64,000 nucleotides of DNA from Coleofasciculus chthonoplastes F2-STO-03 (GCA_040222015.1 JAVJWO010000193.1:32001-96000); one strand, 5' to 3'; positions 1 to 11,815 are shown, numbered from the stretch's first letter. Notes: a model not told the origin generated them from the letters alone. Translations and numbers: made by a program.

Positions 1-3000
1 CTGTAAAAAATTGAAACGCTAATGATAATTTTCCCTGGTGATATAGTATAATTGCCTCTTCAAATTTTTGCTTCGTTTGCTGCTTTAACCGTCGGCTATC
101 AACCGGATCAGTCTCAAACACCTCAAAGATAGGCACTAAATCCTTTTTACCTTTGACCTGAACTTGACCCATAAACCGATACTCATACTGGTTGGAATCA
201 TCCAAGTCAAATAATGTATGTCCACTCACCAGAATCGCCGCCCCATAGACTTTAGTTAAATCTTCCAGCCGGGATGCTAGGTTCACCGTATCAGAAATCA
301 CTGTACTTTCCATCCGTTGTTTTTCCCCAATCGTTCCTAGCATCAAACTCCCCGTATGCACGCCAATACCAATGGTTACTGGCGGATATCCAGCGTTTTG
401 GCGATCGCGATTATATCGGGCTACCTCCTGTTGCATCTCAATCGCGGCTTGCAAGGCGTCATCAGGGGTATGGGGAAACAATGCCATCACTGCATCGCCA
501 ATATATTTATCAATAAAACCCTGATGCTGGCGAATCACCGGACCGACTCGTTTTAAATACGCATTAATAAAGTTAAAATTTTCCTTGGGAGACATTTGTT
601 CCGACAAGGTGGTAAAGTTACGAATATCCGCAAACAACACCGACATCTCCTGCTGCACCTGATCCCCTAGCTGGACATCAACAATACTTTCACGTCCCAG
701 AAAGCGGAGGAATTCATGGGGAACAAAGCGACTATAGGCAGTATTGATTTTTGATAACCGCAGATGGGTTTTAATCCGTGCTAGCAATTCATTTTTCAGC
801 ACCGGTTTGGTGACATAATCATTAGCCCCCACTTCTAACCCAGCCACCAAATCAGACACCTGATTTTTCGCCGTTAACATCACAATCGGCATTTCTGACG
901 CCGAAAACTGCTGGCGAATTGCGCGGCAAACCTGATAACCTGACATTTTGGGCATCATCAGATCCAGGATAATTAAATCGGGTCTTAATCCCTTTTGAAT
1001 CTGATCTAAGGTTTCCATCCCATTCGTGGCGCGAATAATCCGATAGTTTTGGACAGAAAGGTGATTAGCAACGACTTGCAGATTAATCGGTTCATCATCA
1101 ACGACTAAAATGGTTAATTTTTGATTAGACGCGATCGTTGTCTCTTCCGGTAATGATGTCGGAAGTTGGATCGGGTTTGGTCGCACTTTGCTAATCAATT
1201 GGCTGATATTTAATGTCGGTTCTGGGGAGTTAGCACTAATGGGTAAGGTAAAGATAAATCGAGATCCCTGTCCCAATTCAGACTCAACCCGAATTGTACC
1301 ACCATGGAGTTCAACTAATTGTTTAGTAATACTCAAACCCAAACCCGTACCACTGTAAGATCGGGAGAGGGAGGTATCAACCTGTTCAAAGGATTTGAAA
1401 ATAGCCTCAAATTTATTTTCTTGAATCCCGATTCCTGTGTCCGCCACGGTGACTTCAATCTGGTTATTTCTTACCTGTGCGGATACGGTAACGAACCCGG
1501 ATTCAGTAAATTTAATTGCATTCCCCACTAAGTTATACATAATTTGTTGCAAGCGATTCTCATCCCCATCAACAGCAGATAAATTAGCTGGAATCTGGTT
1601 TTGCAGATGCAAGGATTTACCCATAACTAAGGGTTGACAAAGGGTAAGAACGACCTCAACAATTTGCTGAAAATCGACGGATGTACGTTGCAGTTGGATA
1701 TCTTGGTTTTTCAGTTTAGAGAAATCCAGGAGATCATTAACCAGATTGGAGAGGCGCTTTCCACTAGAGACAATCATCGCCAAGTTCGCAATTTGCATCT
1801 CAGACAGCGCCCCGGCTGCACCATCGATCAAGGATTCAGCAATACCAATAATCCCGTTCAGAGGCGTGCGGAGTTCGTGGGAGGTATTGGCGAGAAATTC
1901 GTCCTTGAGTTGGTCGAGGCGTTGCAGGGCGGCGTTTTTGGCTTCTAGTTCCTGAGTAAACTGGAGGCGATCGCGTTCAGCTTGTTTGCGTTGGGTGATA
2001 TCTTGAAACGCCGCGATCGCATAAATAATATTCCCCTGATCATCATAAATGGGTGTCCCCCAAGCTTCTAAGGGAACAATCCGATCCGGTTGATGAACTT
2101 CTACATCATCAATGATTGTTTTTTCTCCCCGCAATGCCCGAACTAAGGGTAAGTTTTCTGTGGGATATAACTTATCCGTCCCCGCGATATAAACCTGATA
2201 GGCTTGGGAGAGATTCTCAATTAATCCTTCTTTAGGAGCATCTAAACCATGTAATTCTAACCCCGTTTGATTCATATTAATCCATTTTCCCATGGCGTCA
2301 ATCACGCCAATTCCGACGGGAATCGCTTCTAGAATTTGGTTAAGTCTTCTCTCATTTTCCCGCAGCAGTACCGTTTCTTGTTCCTGCGCCCTAATTCTCC
2401 ACTGCACATAGCCGAAAACTGTACTGACTAAAGCCAAAACATACAAGGTGTAAGCCCATCCGGTTTTCCAGGGAGGCGGCGAAATAATCAGCTTAATCGA
2501 TGTCCCTTGTTCATTCCAAACCCCGTCATTATTTGACCCTTTTATTCTAAAGATGTACGTCCCACCATCGAGGTTAGTATAGGTGGCATAGCGTCTTGTT
2601 CCAGCCTGAATCCAGTCATGATCAAAGCCTTCTAATTTGTAGGCGTACTTATTTTTAGCTGGATTGCTATAGTCAAGGGCAGCAAATTCAAAGCCAAAGA
2701 AGTTCTCTTTGTAGGATAAGTGTAGTTTTTGAGTTTCTGAAATAGCGGTATCTAGTTTGACACTCTGGTTAAATTTCTGGAAATCTGTGATCACAATGGG
2801 CGGAATATGGGGATTATCCTTCACTTGCTCTGGATCAAAAAACGTGAATCCGTTGTCGCTGCCAAAAAACAGTTCATTGTTTGAGCTTTTGTAATAGGCT
2901 AACGTGTTACATTGATTACTCGCCAACCCATCATCAACATCGTAGTTTCTAATGGTTTCCGTTTGGGGATTAATTTTTGATAATCCCTTGACACTACTTA

Positions 3001-4927
3001 CCCAGAGATTTCCAAAGTCATCAGTTATAATAGCACAGAGAAAATCACTCTTCAGACCGTCTTTCTCGGTGTAGTGGGTAAAATTTTTATGTTCAGGATC
3101 AAATTTATTCAGTCCGGCTTCCGTGGCAATCCAAAGGGTTCCGGATTGGTCTTCCGATATTCCGACTACTCGATTACTACTCAAGCTATTTGGTTGATTC
3201 GGGTCATGTTGGTAATGGATAAATGTACCAGTGGCGCGATCAAATTGGTTGAGTCCTCCCCCATAGGTAGCAATCCAGAATCGATTCAAAGTGTCTTCAT
3301 AAATGGCTAAAATCTGATTTACGCTCAAGCTATTGGATTCATTCGGTTGATGAACCCAATGGGTAAATTTACCCGTCGTGGGATCGAATTGGTTGAGTCC
3401 ACCCCCAAATGTGCCAATCCATAAAGTTCCAGAACGGTCTTCATAAATGACTAGCACAGTATTATCACTGAGGCTATTTGAGTCATTTGGATCGTGGATA
3501 TAATGGACAAATTTTTCTGTGCGAGGGTCAAATCGATTTAATCCCTCATCTCCGCCGATCCAGAATTGACCCGAACTGTCTTGATAAATTGACCAGATAC
3601 TTTCACCCCTCAAGCTGTTGTAATCATTTGGGTTGTTGGTGTAATGGGTCAATTTCCCCGTGGTGCGATTCAGTTTATAAAGACCGCCATTATTCATACC
3701 TACCCAGACGAGACCCAAGTGGTCTTCATAAACTGCCCAAACCCCATCACCCTGTAAGCCATTGGGATTATCCGGTTCAATTTTGTAAGATTTAAATTTT
3801 TGTTTGGCTGGGTCAAATCGATTCACCCCATTTAACCAAGTACCAATCCAGATAGCACCTGTTGGATCAGCATAGATGGATAAAACATTATCACCACTTA
3901 AACTATTAGGTTGGGTGGGATTGTTGGAGTAATGCGTCCATTGTTCTCGCCGGGAATCAAGCAGGTCAACACCTTTACCCGTATAACTAGCATTCCATGT
4001 TCCTGAGCCAATCCAGAGCTGACCCCAACTGTCTTCAGTAATCGCACTTACGTTATCACAACTTAAACTGTTGGGATTATTGGGGTCATGAAGATAGTGA
4101 GTAAATTCTTGAGTGTCTGGGTGAAACTGATTCAGTCCACCCCCATTCGTACCAATCCATAAGACACCAGAAGCATCTTCATAAATTGCACTGATTCGAT
4201 TATCACTCAAGCTATTTGGATTATTCGGTTCATGGAGATAGTGAGTAAATTCTTGAGTGTCTGGGTGAAACTGATTAAGTCCACCTCCATTCGTGCCAAT
4301 CCATAAAACCCCCGCACTATCTTCATAAATGGTACTGATTCGATTATCACTCAAGCTATTCGGATTATTCGGTTCATGGAGATAGTGAGTAAATTCTTGA
4401 GTGTCTGGATTAAACTGATTAAGTCCACCCCCATCGGTGCCAATCCACAAGACACCAGAAGCATCTTCATAAATGGTACTGATTCGATTATCACTTAAGC
4501 TATTAAGATCATTGGGTTCATGAATATAATGAGTAAATTGCTCAGTTAAACGATCAAATCGGTTCAGTCCACCAGTTTGAGTCCCTATCCAGAGAAACCC
4601 TGATGAATCTTCGTAGAGAGATGAGACCCAATTATCCGACAGTGAATTCGGCTGTTCCGGCTCGTGTTTGTAAATTGTAAAATTGTATCCATCGTACTTA
4701 TTCACACCTTCTTGGGTACAAAACCAAATAAATCCTTTCCTGTCTTGTAAAACACAGTTTATCCCCACTAACCCATTGTCAGGCGGCAGGTGATCAAACG
4801 TCAGGTTCACAGCTTGAGCATACCCATGACTTGGGCAAATTAGTATAATTAACAAACTCAGCAGGAGAATTTGAAGCCCTCGGAGAATTTTGCTGCGGAT
4901 TTGGGAACCTAGGCTTCGGATGTCCAT
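1..4927 (-). CDS. Hybrid sensor: Reg_prop beta-propeller + Y_Y_Y + TM + PAS + His kinase + receiver + class III adenylate cyclase (3' end runs off the window)
   Basis: Segments translated by hand; start (MDIRSLGSQ..., ATG 4927), H-box and C-terminus checked to be in one frame. Motifs: signal-like N-terminus, repeated (S)LSDNxxxxIxEDxxGxLWIGT blades, [13 protein letters not shown]-box [16 protein letters not shown], receiver [13 protein letters not shown], cyclase [10 protein letters not shown] / [13 protein letters not shown] / [14 protein letters not shown]. Confidence 0.92.
4093..4524 (-). repeat. Three near-identical 144-bp (48-aa) propeller-blade repeats inside the sensor gene
   Basis: GATAGTGAGTAAATTCTTGAGTGTCTGG recurs at 4093, 4237 and 4381. 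Confidence 0.9.
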
Positions 4928-5074: not shown

Positions 5075-6358
5075 TCAGGTTTGATATTCATAGCCATCAG
5101 CTTTGTGGATATTTGCTAAATATTTGGGATGGACATCAAAACGCTTATTTGGCAGCAGTAGCATGAAACTTGGTCTAAATCTGATAGCGATTCGTCCTGT
5201 ATGTTTACCTGTATATTTACCTTTTGGGATATCGGCTTTAACCATATTGCCCGTCGTAAATCCCATAAAAAATTTAGATTTTGGGGCATGACGTGCAGGA
5301 AAACCATATTTGTCAGGACGGCATCGTTGTCTAGTTCCGTGTCCTTTTGCTACAACTTTTAGAGGCTTAATTCCTCTAATTAATAACTGCTCAGGGGTGG
5401 ATGCTCCCACACAAGAAGCATCAGTCCAGTGTTGCTTTTCAATCCCTCTGGTTTTACGGTTAAACTTGGTGCGACCTCCTGAACCTACTTCTACGGGTAA
5501 GCCAGTTGATTGCAGTCTTCTGAATAACTCCCAGCGAGTAGCATTAACTGCAGCCGCATCTTTAAGAGGTGCTAAGAGGTGAGCTAGGACTCCCTTGAGG
5601 ATGTCAGGCTTCTTTTTCAGGAATTCTTCAACGGGTCTGTTCCCTTTAGCTTGGTTGCAAGAATGACAACTAAGACTCATATTACTGACTCGGTTTGAGC
5701 CACCCTTACTTTTTGCCAGAATGTGTTCAATCTCGAACGGAACATTTTTAGCGCCACAGTAAGCACATTTTCTGTCCCATTTGTGAAGTAAATACTCTTT
5801 AACTTCAAAACCCAATAACTCACCCCTTTGGTACTCAACCCCGCTAATTTCAGGATTTTGCATTTGCTGAAGGTCAAACCTTACCAGTTCTTGAGAGATG
5901 GCTGAAATCGGACAGAGTTCTCTAATCCGTCGTACCCAAGTTTCAATGTTGGCAATCCGACTCTCCAGCGATGGTGGTAGCCATCCGGTTTTACGGGTTC
6001 TGTTTAAGAAACGAGGCTGGCGGTAACGGGTTTTACGGTTACGGCGTCCCCTTCTTAATGACCTGCGAGCTAAGAGGGAATTTTTAATTTGTTGCCCTCG
6101 GTGTGAGATTTCCATGGCGTTTGTTACTCGCCCCGTTTCTTCTTGAACGATGGCAAATCCAGTTACTTTACTGCCAGGATCAATTTTGATCCGATGTGGG
6201 TGCGTGACTGATTCTTCAACGGTTCTGTCTTGCAGGACAATAGTAAATGGATAGCGCTTGAATACTTTAGCCCTCCCTTTGTTCAGTAATTCTCTTGCTC
6301 TCGCTGGATGCGTTGGGTCAAGAGGTTGTAGGTCTTTGTCTAGAACGAAAACTCGCAT
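5075..6358 (-). CDS. iscB: RNA-guided endonuclease IscB (PLMP, split RuvC, bridge helix, HNH)
   Basis: MRVFVLDKDLQPLDP (PLMP), KIDPGSKVTG (RuvC-I), RRSLRRGRRNRKTRYR, QELVRFD (RuvC-II), CAYC..EHI..SN..CHSCN (HNH), HWTDA (RuvC-III); start moved to ATG 6358. Confidence 0.95.
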   Translation of the reverse strand: MRVFVLDKDLQPLDPTHPARARELLNKGRAKVFKRYPFTIVLQDRTVEESVTHPHRIKIDPGSKVTGFAIVQEETGRVTNAMEISHRGQQIKNSLLARRSLRRGRRNRKTRYRQPRFLNRTRKTGWLPPSLESRIANIETWVRRIRELCPISAISQELVRFDLQQMQNPEISGVEYQRGELLGFEVKEYLLHKWDRKCAYCGAKNVPFEIEHILAKSKGGSNRVSNMSLSCHSCNQAKGNRPVEEFLKKKPDILKGVLAHLLAPLKDAAAVNATRWELFRRLQSTGLPVEVGSGGRTKFNRKTRGIEKQHWTDASCVGASTPEQLLIRGIKPLKVVAKGHGTRQRCRPDKYGFPARHAPKSKFFMGFTTGNMVKADIPKGKYTGKHTGRIAIRFRPSFMLLLPNKRFDVHPKYLANIHKADGYEYQT

Positions 6359-6631
6359 TACTTTGAGACTCTCATTACTGGTTAAGTTTGCCTCGCCTTT
6401 GATATCTTGGCTTTTTACACTCAGCACACTGCTCGGAATACCCGTCCTTGCTGGTTAATGCTGAACAACAGAGCTACAAACTGGCTTAAGTTGGCTAGAC
6501 ACGTATTCGTAGGTGTTATGACCGAGATATCGATTACCCTCGAAAAGCCTTTTATCGAGGGAGGCTGGTCAACGTAGGGCTTTTTCAAGCCCCCGTTATA
6601 CCGCCTAAGCGGTTAACGGCGGGTCGTTGAC
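6359..6631 (-). ncRNA. IscB omegaRNA scaffold (HEARO-like)
   Basis: Minus strand reads GTCAACGACCCGCC...GGGGCTTG...GTTGACCAGCC...ACACC...GCCAG...GCTCTG...CAGTG...GGCGAGG, the usual motif order upstream of iscB; the 3' boundary is approximate. Confidence 0.8.
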
Positions 6632-6836: not shown

Positions 6837-6981
6837 TATAGAACAGGTTACAGAACTTTATACTACGGTGTATTACAGTAGCCAGGAAAAAACCCTAATT
6901 CTTGTTGGTGCGTATTACATCGAGTCTGAAACCGCTGTCATCATCACTATTGCTGAACAGTTAGTAACCCAGCCAAAATAG

Positions 6982-7011
6982 TGTAGAGACGTGCCATGGC
7001 ACGTCTCTACA
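6982..7011. repeat. REP-like palindrome GTAGAGACG..CCATGG..CGTCTCTAC (also 30547-30576, 60234-60261)
   Basis: Perfect palindromes, three dispersed copies. Confidence 0.85.
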
Positions 7012-7073
7012 TTGCTATAGAGTCTCAGGAAGTAGTATTGGGTTAACTGGTGGGTAAGTAGAGCTGAACAGGT

Positions 7074-7292
7074 CTACACACAGGGAACTTCAGTATCATC
7101 GCCAAACTGTCGGGCGCGTTCATCAACTAGCAAGCGAGTAAAATTATCTTCCCCCCCTTGTTTGATCAACTCTTTCTGCTCATCTGTCAAATCATACTCA
7201 TTGAGTACAGAATCAGGATCACTACCGAACGTTTGCAGTTTGTTGGGATCTTGCGCTAAATCGGCTAACAGATTAAATAAAGCAGATGCCAT
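7074..7292 (-). CDS. Small acidic helical protein, LigA/borosin-binding-domain/NHLP-clan-like (putative RiPP precursor B)
   Basis: AGGAG SD upstream; 28 of 62 ungapped identities with 8713-8937; L-A-Q-D-P..P..V..YDLTDEQ..GG pattern; tail DDTEVPCV. Confidence 0.75.
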   Translation of the reverse strand: MASALFNLLADLAQDPNKLQTFGSDPDSVLNEYDLTDEQKELIKQGGEDNFTRLLVDERARQFGDDTEVPCV

Positions 7293-7412
7293 AATCCTTA
7301 TCTCCTGTGTCAGGTTTTGCTGTTCAAAGAACTATTTTACTTGCCAATGAGTCAGCGAGTAACTCGAGCAATATACCATATCGGGTTTATGGTCTGATGT
7401 ATCCCGGTTGAC

Positions 7413-8552
7413 CTAGGATTGACGTATTTCATTCCCCAAATACACAGACATGATTTCTCGACTCATCTTACCGTAGTCACCGTCGTACCGGGACACATCA
7501 TAGCAACCCAAGGGATTCTCGACTAAGTTAATCCGGCATTTCTCACAATAGCTGCAAGGCTGATCTGGGCTATCTTTTCCTTGGGCAAATTGTTGCACCA
7601 AGTCAGGGTTAGCAATGAGGGCGCGGGCTAACGTGACGCCATCGCAATATCCACCATGAATCACTTGACGAATATAGGTCGCCGTTTGAAACCCTCCTGT
7701 ACACAACACAGGGATATGAACCGACTGTTTAATAGAATGGCTTCTATCAATATGGTCTCCCTTAATATCCAAAGGGAAATGGTTGTTCGCCGCTTGGGGA
7801 TAGGGGACTTTGCTCCCCAGATGTAGCGCATCCGCTCCAGCTTGTTCAATCCACTGACACAGTTGTACAGAATTCTCGCGAGTATCCAACGCCCCAACTT
7901 TGACCTGGACATGAAAATCCTGTCCCACCTGTTGACGGATCATTTTCAGGGTATCCAGTAAAAAGCGCGATCGCTCTTTTAATGAACCCCCATACTCATC
8001 CTCTCGCTGATTGACCGTAGGACTAAGAAACTGACCGATCAGATTCACCGGAACTCTAGTTCCCCCTGATTCCAAATCCCCTAAAAGTCGTCCCGTTCCT
8101 CCACTCGTTCCATCCACTTCCACGCCGTCTAATCCCGCTTCCCGCGCCCGTCTAGTTGCATCAGCAAACCATTGCATCGTTTCTTGAATTTGCTCAAGGG
8201 TCATCCTTTGACTCAGATTACCTAAGTGAGAACCACCGTAGCTAATTTGTAGGATATACTTACAGTCCCATTTGTGGACCGCCTCAGCCACCTGTCGCCA
8301 AAATGGAATCGTGCGATCGCTCTCAATCGTGGCACAGTGAGGAGCCATGCGTCCTTGGTTATGGATGGGTGCAACTCCGGAAAGGATCGCTCCCACACCC
8401 CCCTGAGCAAACCGTTCTTCCCATCGGAGACGTGCAGGAGTCCCTAATCCATCAGGATCATCAAAATTTCCGTAAGTATTAGCGCGAAAGATACGGTTTT
8501 TTACCGTAAGATTCCGAAATTTCAACGGTTCAAAGATAATATCATTGACCAT
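7413..8552 (-). CDS. NADH:flavin oxidoreductase / Old Yellow Enzyme family, atypical active site, C-terminal Cys cluster
   Basis: IFEPLKFRNLTVKNRI, AGLDGVEV, QFLSPTVNQREDEYGGSL, ARALIANPDL, CSYCEKC..GC. Confidence 0.9.
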   Translation of the reverse strand: MVNDIIFEPLKFRNLTVKNRIFRANTYGNFDDPDGLGTPARLRWEERFAQGGVGAILSGVAPIHNQGRMAPHCATIESDRTIPFWRQVAEAVHKWDCKYILQISYGGSHLGNLSQRMTLEQIQETMQWFADATRRAREAGLDGVEVDGTSGGTGRLLGDLESGGTRVPVNLIGQFLSPTVNQREDEYGGSLKERSRFLLDTLKMIRQQVGQDFHVQVKVGALDTRENSVQLCQWIEQAGADALHLGSKVPYPQAANNHFPLDIKGDHIDRSHSIKQSVHIPVLCTGGFQTATYIRQVIHGGYCDGVTLARALIANPDLVQQFAQGKDSPDQPCSYCEKCRINLVENPLGCYDVSRYDGDYGKMSREIMSVYLGNEIRQS

Positions 8553-8566
8553 GAGCAGATGCGTGA

Positions 8567-8690
8567 TAAGCTGTTCGGCATTTAAACCTTAATGTCAATA
8601 ATAACGAAATCCTTGTTGTGTGAGCATCTTGCTCACTGCATTGAGCATCTTGCTCGCTACCCATTCCCAATTTAAATGCATGACAGCTTA
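8567..8690. mobile_element. MITE-like element carrying GAGCATCTTGCTC hairpins (partial relatives at ~11573-11632 and ~35020-35122)
   Basis: Imperfect terminal inverted repeats TAAGCTGTTCGGCATTTAAA / TTTAAATGCATGACAGCTTA. Confidence 0.65.
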
Positions 8691-8712
8691 CCTTGATGAG
8701 ATAAGAATTAAA

Positions 8713-8937
8713 CTACATAAACGAATTGCCCAGTCGTTTAGCTCGTTCTGCCAGCATCAGTTTAATATAGTTCTCAGTCCCCCCAACTCGGATTAAATCT
8801 TTCTGCTCTTCGGTCAAGTCATACTCCTCAATTAGAGCGTCTTTTTGATTCAGATATTTATCAAATATCTCTGGGTCTTCTGCCATATCCACCAATAGCT
8901 TAAATACAGCCGATCCGGGCATATTGGTTTGCTCCAT
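8713..8937 (-). CDS. Small acidic helical protein, paralogue of 7074-7292 (putative RiPP precursor A)
   Basis: Strong AGGAGG SD before ATG 8937 (MEQTNMPGSAVF...); shared SAxFxLLxDxAxDP..EYDLTxEQKxLI.GG..N...L...ERA...G. Confidence 0.75.
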   Translation of the reverse strand: MEQTNMPGSAVFKLLVDMAEDPEIFDKYLNQKDALIEEYDLTEEQKDLIRVGGTENYIKLMLAERAKRLGNSFM

Positions 8938-9058: not shown

Positions 9059-10195
9059 TTATGCCAGTGGCAGATAAAATCGAAACGTACTACCTACTCC
9101 CAACTGACTGTCCACCTCAATCTCACCTCCTTGCAATTCCACCAACCGCTTCGAGATCGCTAACCCAATTCCCGTTCCCCCAGTGTTCGGATTGCGCGAC
9201 TTTTCCGCCCGCCAGAACCGTTCAAACACATGAGGAATATCCTCTGGGACAATCCCCATACCTGTATCCGTTACCGCAATCCATAACCGAGGCATTAGTC
9301 CTTTTCTCCCGTCCCGTTCTACCCACACCCGCACCGTAATCGCACCCGTTTGAGTATGGCGAATCGCATTCCCTAGAAGATTCACTAGTACCTGTTCTAA
9401 TCGGTCACTATCTGCCAATATCCGAGGCAATTTCTCAGGACAATCTAACTGCAATATGGGACTTTCTTCCAACACCTGATCTGCAAATTTTTGCACCAGG
9501 GATTCTAACAGGGGACACACATTCACGGGTTCAACTTTAATCGGCAGATAACCCGCTTCTGCTTTCGAGAGTTCCTGTAAATCATTAATTAATCGTTCCA
9601 ACCGTCGCGTTTCTTTTGCCAACTGCTGATACATCGCAGGCGTTGCGTCCATCCGTTGGGCAGCAAGTTCTTCTAAATAACCCCGAAGTACCGTCAGTGG
9701 GGTTCGCAGTTCATGGGTTAAATCACTGACTAAATCTCGCCGTCGCTGTTCCACATCTTCTAAACTCACTGCCATTTGGTTAAAACTGCTGGCAAGTTGA
9801 TTAATTTCGGGAATTTCACTGGGCGGAAGTCGTTTATCCAGCTTACCCGCTGCAAATTGTTGCGTAATGTCTTCAATTTGAGTTAGGGGTTTTACGATGC
9901 GACGAGACAACCAGTAACTGAGTCCCCCCGCCGCCGTCGTGCCAACAATAACCGACCAAAACGTGCCGCGATTCCATGCGGTTTGAAATCCTTGTAGTAA
10001 GGAAGTACGAGCAACGCGAAAGATGACACCTTTGCCTTCTAATTGTTGCAAATGCAAAATAAAGAAGCGCGGCGAAGACAATTTACTGATAATTAACAGG
10101 GAACCCACGCCGACAATCATCACCAATAAATGGGAGAGAAACAGGCGCGAGACTAAGGGTAACGATTTGCGGCGGCGTAAACCGGTTTTACTCAT
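9059..10195 (-). CDS. HAMP-domain sensor histidine kinase (BaeS-like)
   Basis: Two TM segments, HAMP, H-box [12 protein letters not shown]1/F/G2 boxes. Confidence 0.95.
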   Translation of the reverse strand: MSKTGLRRRKSLPLVSRLFLSHLLVMIVGVGSLLIISKLSSPRFFILHLQQLEGKGVIFRVARTSLLQGFQTAWNRGTFWSVIVGTTAAGGLSYWLSRRIVKPLTQIEDITQQFAAGKLDKRLPPSEIPEINQLASSFNQMAVSLEDVEQRRRDLVSDLTHELRTPLTVLRGYLEELAAQRMDATPAMYQQLAKETRRLERLINDLQELSKAEAGYLPIKVEPVNVCPLLESLVQKFADQVLEESPILQLDCPEKLPRILADSDRLEQVLVNLLGNAIRHTQTGAITVRVWVERDGRKGLMPRLWIAVTDTGMGIVPEDIPHVFERFWRAEKSRNPNTGGTGIGLAISKRLVELQGGEIEVDSQLGVGSTFRFYLPLA

Positions 10196-10486
10196 GATTA
10201 AAGAAGAATGATGTAACAACCCGTAAAAATGACCCGCTCGACCTAATCTATAAACATTAGAAACAGGGCGGGTTTACATCAGTTACAAGTTTTTGCTTGT
10301 ATTTTATGTCTATCTACTCCTCAACATTTCCCCCTCATCCCCTAACCCCAACTCCGGTCCCCTCGTTCCCCCCTACCCCCCTCGTTCCCCCTGCTACAAG
10401 AGGGGGGAGGACAGAGGATGCGAGAGCTTTTGTTGCAGGGGTGAGGGGTTGAGCTTAAGTTGACACGGGTGTTGGAGACCAAACCC

Positions 10487-11191
10487 CTACGGGGTGTCTT
10501 CAAATTTATAACCAACACCGATAACCGTTTTAACAAAGGTCGGATTACTGGGGTCTGGTTCTATTTTTTTCCGCAATCGGGCGACATGGGTATCAACCAC
10601 CCGTTCATCGCCAAAAAAGTCATTCCCCCACAGTTTATCAATCAGTTGAGTACGATTCCAAACTCGACCGGGTTGACTGATAAAGGTTGCCAACAGATTA
10701 AATTCTAACGTGGTTAAATCCAGGGGTTCTGATTCCCCAGAATCGAGTTGGCGACTAGCCGTATGCTGATCCACATCCACAGTAAAATGTTGGGTACGGT
10801 AGACAAGGGACTGTCCGCCATGACGCAAACTACGCCGCAATAGCGCCCGGACTCTAGCCACCAGTTCGGTAGGGCTAAAGGGTTTGACGAGGTAATCATC
10901 AGCACCTGTTGATAGCCCAATCACGCGGTCAATTTCCTCTCCCTTCGCCGTCAGCATTAGAATATACGGGTCTTTGGGTCCCGGTTTTTGGCGAATTCGG
11001 GCGCAAACTTCCAATCCATCCAATCCCGGTAGCATTAAGTCGAGAATAATCACATCCGGTTGCTGGGTTTGGAAGGCTTGCAAGGCGGCTAATCCATCGC
11101 GATAGGAGTAGCAGGTGAATCCTTCCCGTTCTAGGGTAAGTTGGATGAGTTTGGCGATTTCCGCTTCGTCTTCAACGATTAAAATATCCAT
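10487..11191 (-). CDS. OmpR-family response regulator
   Basis: ILIVEDE..DLMLPGLDG..KPF, winged helix RVVDTHVARLRKK..TVIGVGY. Confidence 0.95.
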   Translation of the reverse strand: MDILIVEDEAEIAKLIQLTLEREGFTCYSYRDGLAALQAFQTQQPDVIILDLMLPGLDGLEVCARIRQKPGPKDPYILMLTAKGEEIDRVIGLSTGADDYLVKPFSPTELVARVRALLRRSLRHGGQSLVYRTQHFTVDVDQHTASRQLDSGESEPLDLTTLEFNLLATFISQPGRVWNRTQLIDKLWGNDFFGDERVVDTHVARLRKKIEPDPSNPTFVKTVIGVGYKFEDTP

Positions 11192-11815
11192 ACAGGAACT
11201 CTGGCGACTGGACGTCACAGCTACACAAACTTTCGTCCGCCTGTGCGGACTGAATTATAAAGGGGGTAGTCAATCCGGATTTGGTATTAGACGCCGCATT
11301 GGGGATGGCTTTTGCCTGTGCTTGTTTCTACGATACCTCATCCCCATTCATCAGACGACAGCGAGGAAGCCCAACACTACTGCAAGGGATAGGGGAGCAT
11401 GTTCCAGATGCGCCATGGCGCGTCTGGGGAGAATAAATGAAATTAGATCTCGCGGCGAGCAGGATTGGGAAGCCCAAGTTTTGTTGAGGAGGGGTTGATT
11501 CATGAATCGTTGTTTTTGTCAAGACAAAACGAATAGGATCAGGGCGGCTTTTTTCGGCTTATTATATTTTTATCTCATCCTTGTAGTGCGAGCATCTTGC
11601 TCGCTACTAATACCCAATTTAAATGCATGATAAGTAGTCGGACAAAAGTTGAGTAAAGGGCGACCCGACCCCATTGAATGGACTGATGTTGTTAATTAGG
11701 TCAAGCGGGTCGCCCCTACAGGGGAATTATAAATGTTGCTTTCATCCGTTGCCGATGCGATCGCTAATTTAGATCCCCAACCTTCAAGAAGTCGAGGATC
11801 GGGTAGGGGAATGGA

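Follow-up and report, generated by a model that had tools for sequence, protein, structure and literature searches.

What does a flavoenzyme of the OYE family do when its gene stands between those of two small, mutually similar peptides? The question is raised by a 64,000-nucleotide stretch of DNA from Coleofasciculus chthonoplastes F2-STO-03 (GCA_040222015.1 JAVJWO010000193.1:32001-96000), the whole of which is here called the window. The answer favoured below, with a probability put at about 0.6, is that one peptide and the flavoenzyme (OYE*) are parts of a RiPP-type signal cassette, consisting of precursor, maturase and cognate receptor ectodomain, that is swapped as a unit, in the manner of quorum-sensing pherotypes, and in which OYE* would oxidise a Cys-X tail to give a signal for the adjacent receptor. 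If a YcaO-assisted variant of the chemistry is counted in, a precursor-maturase-receptor cassette is rather likely.

Table 1. Features of the locus in window coordinates, from left to right
Feature	Position	Strand	Description
Sensor, 3′ part	1-2677	(-)	Y_Y_Y, membrane segment, PAS, HisKA, HATPase, REC, adenylate/guanylate cyclase; follows genus; ends 73 bases past the left edge
Sensor, 5′ part	2678-4927	(-)	Signal/TM segment and Reg_prop beta-propeller ectodomain, codons 1 to ~750; exchanged, cassette-specific half
IscB + HEARO	5075-6631	(-)	IscB 5075-6427, HEARO RNA 6381-6631; intact mobile element between peptide B and sensor
Peptide B	7074-7292	(-)	72 aa; BBD-like five-helix leader (4-63) and flexible tail GDDTEVPCV; putative precursor
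OYE*	7413-8552	(-)	379 aa; single-domain FMN/[4Fe-4S]-type TIM barrel; putative maturase
Peptide A	8713-8937	(-)	74 aa; BBD/LigA-like leader and tail GNSFM
Response regulator + histidine kinase	9059-11218	(-)	Conserved host flank genes marking the locus; outside the exchanged block

The preliminary description of this DNA gave three co-oriented genes in the order peptide A, OYE homologue, peptide B, and all three lie on the minus strand where it had placed them. The ungapped likeness it saw between the peptides, 28 identities in 62 positions, runs over residues 3–64 of peptide B, and the best of 20,000 shuffles reached 16 identities (mean 9.3). The SD sites are there too, an SD-like AAGGAGG 7 nt 5′ of peptide A and AGGAG 5′ of peptide B; none is evident 5′ of the OYE* gene. 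Peptides A and B are the sole members of their family in their own genome.

Peptide B is modelled as five helices followed by a loose tail (pLDDT 86.5). Its top fold match is SonA, both in Foldseek (probability 1.00, E 0.12, rmsd 1.9) and in VIA-align, where the score is modest (Z 7.0, 52 residues aligned, rmsd 1.9); fungal borosin-binding domains (BBDs), LigA (Z 5.8) and DesB (Z 5.4) come next. The resemblance of the peptides to the BBD and LigA, proposed in the preliminary description, is borne out since the four best fold rows, which are all that exceed Z 5 and have modest scores, are all of the BBD/LigA type. Sequence models respond faintly. Pfam LigA is matched weakly by both peptides (E 7e-4 and 3e-4; 20–21 bits, under the 25.3 cut-off), and the Os1348 NHLP and IniB-N models match peptide B weakly and far below cut-off (16.4 bits against 40 for Os1348), which leaves it under all NHLP cut-offs. 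Leads from the ESM Atlas all stayed below 0.9 and pointed to clusters that were unnamed or of LigA type. No LigB was found in any of the loci listed. Many distant LigA-like peptides with a terminal Cys occur in metagenomes (P0134-P0151 and others), without names or gene context.

The enzyme between the peptides has the OYE fold (PF00724, 155 bits; Foldseek matches to OYE/DCR with TM ~0.7) and is nearest to the DCR-type Fe-S flavoenzymes without having their FAD domain, as the chain ends at residue 379. A homologue search gave 12 proteins of its kind (372–390 aa, 62–79% identity, the named ones cyanobacterial) and a large parent group of ~440 aa and ~45% identity, within which OYE* is nested as one clade on a long stem (SH-aLRT 100 in a quick tree of 39 rows). 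Q102, the R195 region and the TGG and AR motifs are invariant, and the Fe-S cysteines C333/C336/C339/C350 are kept, all four being invariant in 76/76 proteins when OYE* and parents are taken together. The active site has been remodelled. The parental motif ELHGANGY has become EVDxTxxGxG plus an insert (~13 residues) and N170; His is replaced by D147 and Tyr by N170 in 12/12 members, against His and Tyr in 64/64 parents, and with the Asn lost as well the parental active-site trio is replaced throughout the clade. Three loops, of ~23, 13 and 44 residues, are deleted relative to the parents. Comparison of the 12 with the 64 shows T26, Y27, N29, Y105, T149, K248, H267, E337 and R340 to be newly fixed, and a new invariant polar set is made up of T26, Y27, N29, Y105, D147, T149, N170, K248 and H267.

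Because the catalytic Tyr and His are replaced, OYE* is unlikely to be an ene-reductase. The proton-donor Tyr is described as invariant in OYEs in PMC6502838, and catalysis by OYE* is not assured because that residue is absent. Oxidation would have precedent by analogy within the family, the same source describing trimethylamine and histamine dehydrogenases as oxidising their substrates with electrons leaving via the cluster (PMC6502838). Judged by its codons, OYE* is under strong purifying selection: dN/dS is 0.08–0.10 (finite in 8 of 10 pairs and saturated in 2, with 0.084 for the unsaturated G091-G332), and a decaying pseudoenzyme was rejected on this ground. Individual copies are damaged, with frameshifts in both OYE* and the sensor of G269 and one stop in the OYE* of L129, which may be cassette decay or assembly errors. 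The genome of the window also has a long parent OYE (L033 7601-17939, G000:C134), whose operon includes a lipoxygenase-like gene and three cytochrome c-type proteins, labels that were read from the sequences. A phylum-wide search (401 genomes, 4 candidates scored in each) met OYE* in its own genome alone and missed the parent OYE of that same genome, so absence elsewhere is not implied.

Is the association of peptide and enzyme a constant one? The peptide profile matched 32/401 genomes of the order, seven of them at E < 1e-25 (G000, G091, G203, G269, G320, G324 and G332), and OYE* adjoins the peptide in 7/7. One metagenome contig has the same arrangement, making 8/8 loci (L001 and G324:C411 are one contig and were counted once; a match in G054, E 4e-18, has neither ORF nor OYE*, is probably a remnant and was left out of the counts). 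Synteny of the peptides with this OYE clade, on which the first proposal hung, is thus conserved; at parent-OYE loci the peptide was found in 0/3 scanned (L002, L033, L038).

The tails fared differently from the leaders. A conserved leader with a variable core had been proposed from NSFM and DDTEVPCV, and that layout does not hold: 11/12 OYE*-linked peptides end in Cys followed by V, L, I or F, the Cys usually being their sole one. The Cys of VPCV, named at the outset as a possible site of modification, has become the likely target from its retention across this family. Peptide A is the one Cys-less peptide among the 12, and its counterpart in G324 ends GDVCL; it is probably a duplicate that has lost the reactive Cys, whether as helper, competitor or decaying copy.

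Other enzymes go with other tails. [LM]KAP tails are found in 5/5 peptides paired with the TIGR03975 RiPP radical-SAM C-methyltransferase (matches of 674 and 657 bits, cut-off 282), ThcOx-paired precursors have Cys in the tail in 5/5, and BBD-type peptides with DPGPDP tails include two near borosin-type methyltransferases. That a single leader family serves three families of enzyme, with a separate tail for each, is the usual RiPP pattern.

Several of these sets merit recording in their own right. At L073, L074, L075, L076 and L077, BBD-type [LM]KAP peptides with the radical-SAM C-methyltransferase stand before the same receptor family and form an undescribed sister cassette. At L090, L120, L121, L122, L123, L125 and L126 it is an NHLP precursor with a ThcOx/SagB oxidase that stands there, with YcaO in cis in two, and G373 has an NHLP precursor before the receptor and no enzyme adjoining. 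In many genomes (L056-L072) DPGPDPxPDPD-tailed BBD-type peptides lie between TPR proteins and Ser/Thr-His kinases; the borosin-type methyltransferases near such peptides are in G178 and G171, that of G171 being frameshifted.

The resemblance to SonA invites the reading that the peptides are split-borosin precursors methylated by an enzyme encoded elsewhere, with the OYE a bystander, and the DPGPDP-tailed distant relatives beside borosin-type methyltransferases would fit it. Yet two half-length queries found no methyltransferase of the PF00590 type in the window's own draft genome (as control, the G178 homologue was found at 73%), one query found none in any of 5 draft OYE* genomes, none is in the locus, and the peptide is linked to OYE* in 8/8. 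A borosin methyltransferase acting in trans was accordingly rejected as a candidate after the search of the own genome and of 5 OYE* genomes. The preliminary description had named such an enzyme elsewhere as a danger to its proposal; none turned up genome-wide, and this reading is largely refuted, with hardly any probability left to it.

Binding of the leader to the enzyme is predicted. Modelled together with peptide B, FMN and a 4Fe-4S cluster, OYE* gave a complex score of 0.75, against 0.01 for the best control; the three runs gave 0.01, 0.76 and 0.75, between-run agreement is at least 0% and partner pLDDT at least 64. The mark applied to such scores is reached by 116/157 solved and 2/215 mismatched pairs, a rough guide only, as own alignments and ligands were used here. 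The confident interface in the model puts leader residues 3–46 on OYE* 336–376, a surface mostly conserved in the parent clade too. As to entry of the tail into the FMN site, the model does not place the tail, which is outside the confident contacts. The model supports docking of the leader on OYE* and does not separate a substrate from a subunit.

A subunit is what the peptides would be if they were permanent small partners of OYE*, as LigA is for LigB, with the complex converting a small metabolite that the receptor senses and with the Cys tail as a structural or redox arm. LigA and DesB are among the fold matches, the helical bundle is modelled on the Fe-S module with its tail unplaced, and a parent OYE in a lipoxygenase operon would make small-molecule chemistry ancestral. 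Against this, the same leader family is found with three peptide-modifying enzymes that are unrelated to one another and have a separate tail each, and what replaces the OYE* cassette ahead of this receptor family is in the other cases a recognisable RiPP precursor/maturase pair. Permanent subunits are on these grounds unlikely, and a peptide that is substrate rather than partner is preferred.

The main evidence for that preference comes from a gene that the preliminary description did not mention, a hybrid sensor kinase of 1666 aa that starts at 4927 on the minus strand and runs off the left window edge. It is directly 3′ of the OYE* cassette in 5/5 loci where that DNA is assembled. A search with its ectodomain gave 17 matches in 16/401 genomes, 4 of them at contig edges (it missed G365, which was in the sample); where upstream DNA was available, a precursor of RiPP type stands ahead in 13/13, whether or not its enzyme is there too. 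The OYE*-type ectodomains have a mark of their own at window positions 4718-4756: in 5/5 the first blade has two Cys (C58 and C70 of the sensor) and is shorter by a deletion of 2 residues, features absent from the other 11.

Between close relatives the slot before the sensor changes its contents. In G365, a congener of the window with flanks at 92–96% DNA identity, the slot holds a KAP peptide and a radical-SAM enzyme, and in G424 the window's locus has an NHLP precursor ending FRACF with a ThcOx/SagB oxidase. A second genus has peptide and OYE* in G091 and G332 and peptide and radical SAM in G195, G211, G282 and G295, both kinds behind the same Ser/Thr kinase gene. No cassette was found at the locus in four other congeners of the window, nor in five of the second genus.

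With the cassette changes the outer half of the receptor. The window's sensor and that of G365 share 57% identity in the ectodomain, 90% in the kinase core and 96% in REC; for G091 against G195 and G211 the figures are 51–52%, 93–97% and 98–99%, and in all three sensor pairs, from both genera, DNA identity jumps near codon 750. The ectodomains of 16 sensors form three clades by cassette (support 100/100, 100/99 and 100/99), and both genus groupings are rejected (p-AU 5e-33 and 1e-4); the kinase plus REC part, alignable in 9 of the 16 rows, groups by genus, with the cassette clades rejected (p-AU 2e-53 and 8e-85), all of these groupings having been named after the congener identities had been seen. 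The independent congeneric swaps are two only. Precursor, maturase and receptor ectodomain thus co-vary over a conserved kinase half, as in a pherotype. To judge from the genes, peptide, enzyme and outer receptor half are exchanged as one block, and such an exchange would mark, at the level of genes, a chemical language specific to strains. It is this exchange of the ectodomain together with peptide and enzyme that chiefly argues for the peptide being substrate and its product the signal.

The same comparison bears on whether OYE* is a catalyst at all. It might be a flavin/Fe-S protein without catalytic activity, which retains the peptide and redox-gates its release or thiol state, an unmodified or disulfide-linked tail then being the signal; the replacement of the parental His, Asn and Tyr in 12/12 suits this, as does the extra Cys pair that the other 11 ectodomains lack. 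But a new invariant polar set has taken the place of the old, dN/dS is ~0.09, and the equivalent slot in other cassettes is always filled by a catalytic maturase family, so that such a role for OYE* is improbable.

If OYE* is a maturase, does it act alone? No borosin methyltransferase or YcaO had been seen nearby, which is true of the window and fails just outside it, a TOMM YcaO being encoded ~3–5 kb beyond the left edge on the same contig. OYE* might then stand in for ThcOx, with a YcaO in trans making a thiazoline at the Cys and OYE* oxidising it to the thiazole, the product still being the receptor ligand. ThcOx cassettes whose precursors have the same Cys-X ends (FRACF, VICA) precede the same receptor family, one of them at this very locus in G424, and 5/7 OYE* genomes have a TOMM YcaO. 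However, in G091 (99% complete) and G320 (100%) none was found with TIGR03604 or PF02624, 3/3 ThcOx genomes tested have one, the YcaO next door has its own precursor and amidohydrolase and occurs in congeners without the cassette, and OYE*-type and ThcOx-type ectodomains form separate clades. The ThcOx-like role is thus unlikely, and YcaO-independent chemistry is favoured because two near-complete OYE* genomes yielded no YcaO and the three ThcOx genomes did.

The neighbouring set (L042 3603-9062, just left of the window) is of interest in itself. It comprises a Dyp peroxidase, an NHLP-like peptide ending GLFGIIRGT, the TOMM YcaO, the amidohydrolase and a Ser/Thr-His kinase, and looks like a second signalling-type RiPP set. 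It also contains remnants of a further YcaO and amidohydrolase, which match those of the congeners at 97% and 89%, the intact genes being only 65–73% alike, and the corresponding precursors of congeners end YIPLTSC, YIPCSSC or YIPTTSS. Remnants beside intact genes point to a second cassette swap.

Within the window, the mobile IscB/HEARO element has not been seen at this position in other OYE* loci; its one other copy in the genome has 76% DNA identity. A short dispersed repeat occupies 8564-8690, between peptide A and OYE*, with 140 genome matches of at least 50 bases. On the other side of the cassette, the flanking histidine kinase (9059-11218 region) was matched in 40/52 family genomes. A promoter scan found 3 against 7.5 expected, not above chance. 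Only minor parts of the stretch were covered by RNA runs; a 587-nt contig from a related strain (run X1) spans 6916-7525, with peptide B and the 3′ end of OYE*, and leaves the middle of OYE* uncovered, and transcription cannot be read from such contigs.

The cassette reading can be set out as a sequence of steps. Peptide, enzyme and ectodomain move as a unit and give way as a unit to other such sets, as sequences and trees show. The five-helix leader is predicted to dock on the Fe-S and C-terminal helices of OYE*. The short tail might then reach the FMN site, opened by loss of the three lid loops, where its Cys-hydrophobic end would be oxidised, and the [4Fe-4S] cluster would hand the electrons on to a carrier, for instance ferredoxin. 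The reaction favoured, tentatively and for somewhat under a third of the cassette reading, is a YcaO-independent two-electron oxidation in which the Cys thiol forms a ring with the last residue, whose carboxyl group is either kept (−2 Da) or lost (−46 Da); for the remainder OYE* would perform other redox reactions on the same Cys. A host protease and exporter would free the tail: neither was found in the cassette, no dedicated exporter is common to the OYE* genomes, and the NHLM transporter passes its cut-off in only 2/5 of them. Finally, the product may bind the beta-propeller of the adjacent kinase and set its phosphorelay and cyclic-nucleotide output.

If this is right, RiPP chemistry gains a new enzyme fold, pointing to a new kind of peptide-modifying enzyme, and the BBD leader is extended beyond borosins (PMC8429565 gives the BBD as not seen, as of 2021, in other RiPP classes). 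There would be a testable candidate for peptide cell-cell signalling in cyanobacteria, with strain-specific dialects; many orphan RiPP mini-clusters of cyanobacteria would acquire a function, and orphan beta-propeller sensor kinases would acquire ligands. The chances are evenly balanced for the broadest form of the claim: that mat-forming filamentous cyanobacteria have an undescribed family of peptide-signal pherotypes, a single receptor scaffold taking now one RiPP chemistry and now another as its partner, and that OYE* is the first OYE-fold RiPP maturase, a YcaO-independent redox enzyme acting on a C-terminal Cys-X, of a new RiPP class with a BBD leader. No description of a peptide/OYE*/receptor cassette was found in the open literature; subscription chemistry journals were mostly outside the search, and an earlier mention is possible.

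How does the cassette compare with what is known? OYE* shares the TIM barrel and the four-Cys Fe-S motif with other OYE-family Fe-S flavoenzymes, namely E. coli 2,4-dienoyl-CoA reductase (1PS9), the trimethylamine and histamine dehydrogenases and BilR/BaiCD; it differs from them in having no FAD/NAD(P)H domain, in its replaced catalytic Tyr and His, in the three loops lost relative to its parents and in its tie to a peptide. The place before this receptor family is otherwise taken by TOMM/NHLP systems with ThcOx/SagB and by systems with TIGR03975 C-methyltransferases, some of which share the Cys-X end, whereas the OYE* cassette is without YcaO or nitroreductase-fold oxidase and has a BBD-type precursor under all NHLP cut-offs. 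In staphylococcal agr groups, enzyme, precursor and the 5′ end of the sensor-kinase gene co-vary and the kinase half is conserved. In Bacillus ComQXPA, as described in PMC6334282, comQ, comX and the 5′ end of comP vary together, and the present locus is like it in that enzyme, precursor and 5′ sensor-gene end vary together over a conserved kinase half. No part is homologous to either system (Pfam/NCBIfam matches showed no ComQ/ComX/ComP or AgrB/D/C homology beyond the generic kinase core): the leader is of BBD type, an Fe-S flavoprotein takes the place of the prenyltransferase, the receptor is a Reg_prop/Y_Y_Y hybrid kinase with cyclase or SpoIIE-type output, the host is a Gram-negative phototroph, and whole enzyme families (OYE*, B12 radical SAM, ThcOx) rather than alleles of one are exchanged. 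With the split borosin SonM/SonA, as PMC8429565 and bioRxiv 2024.01.09.574750 present it, the cassette shares a precursor of ~70 aa, a five-helix BBD leader, a short C-terminal core and a leader that carries the enzyme contact; it differs in the absence of an alpha-N-methyltransferase from locus and genome, in the OYE-fold partner, in the conserved Cys-X end and in the linked receptor. In its way of working, then, the cassette resembles the ComQXP and agr pherotypes, and its leader resembles that of borosins, but it is a member of neither.
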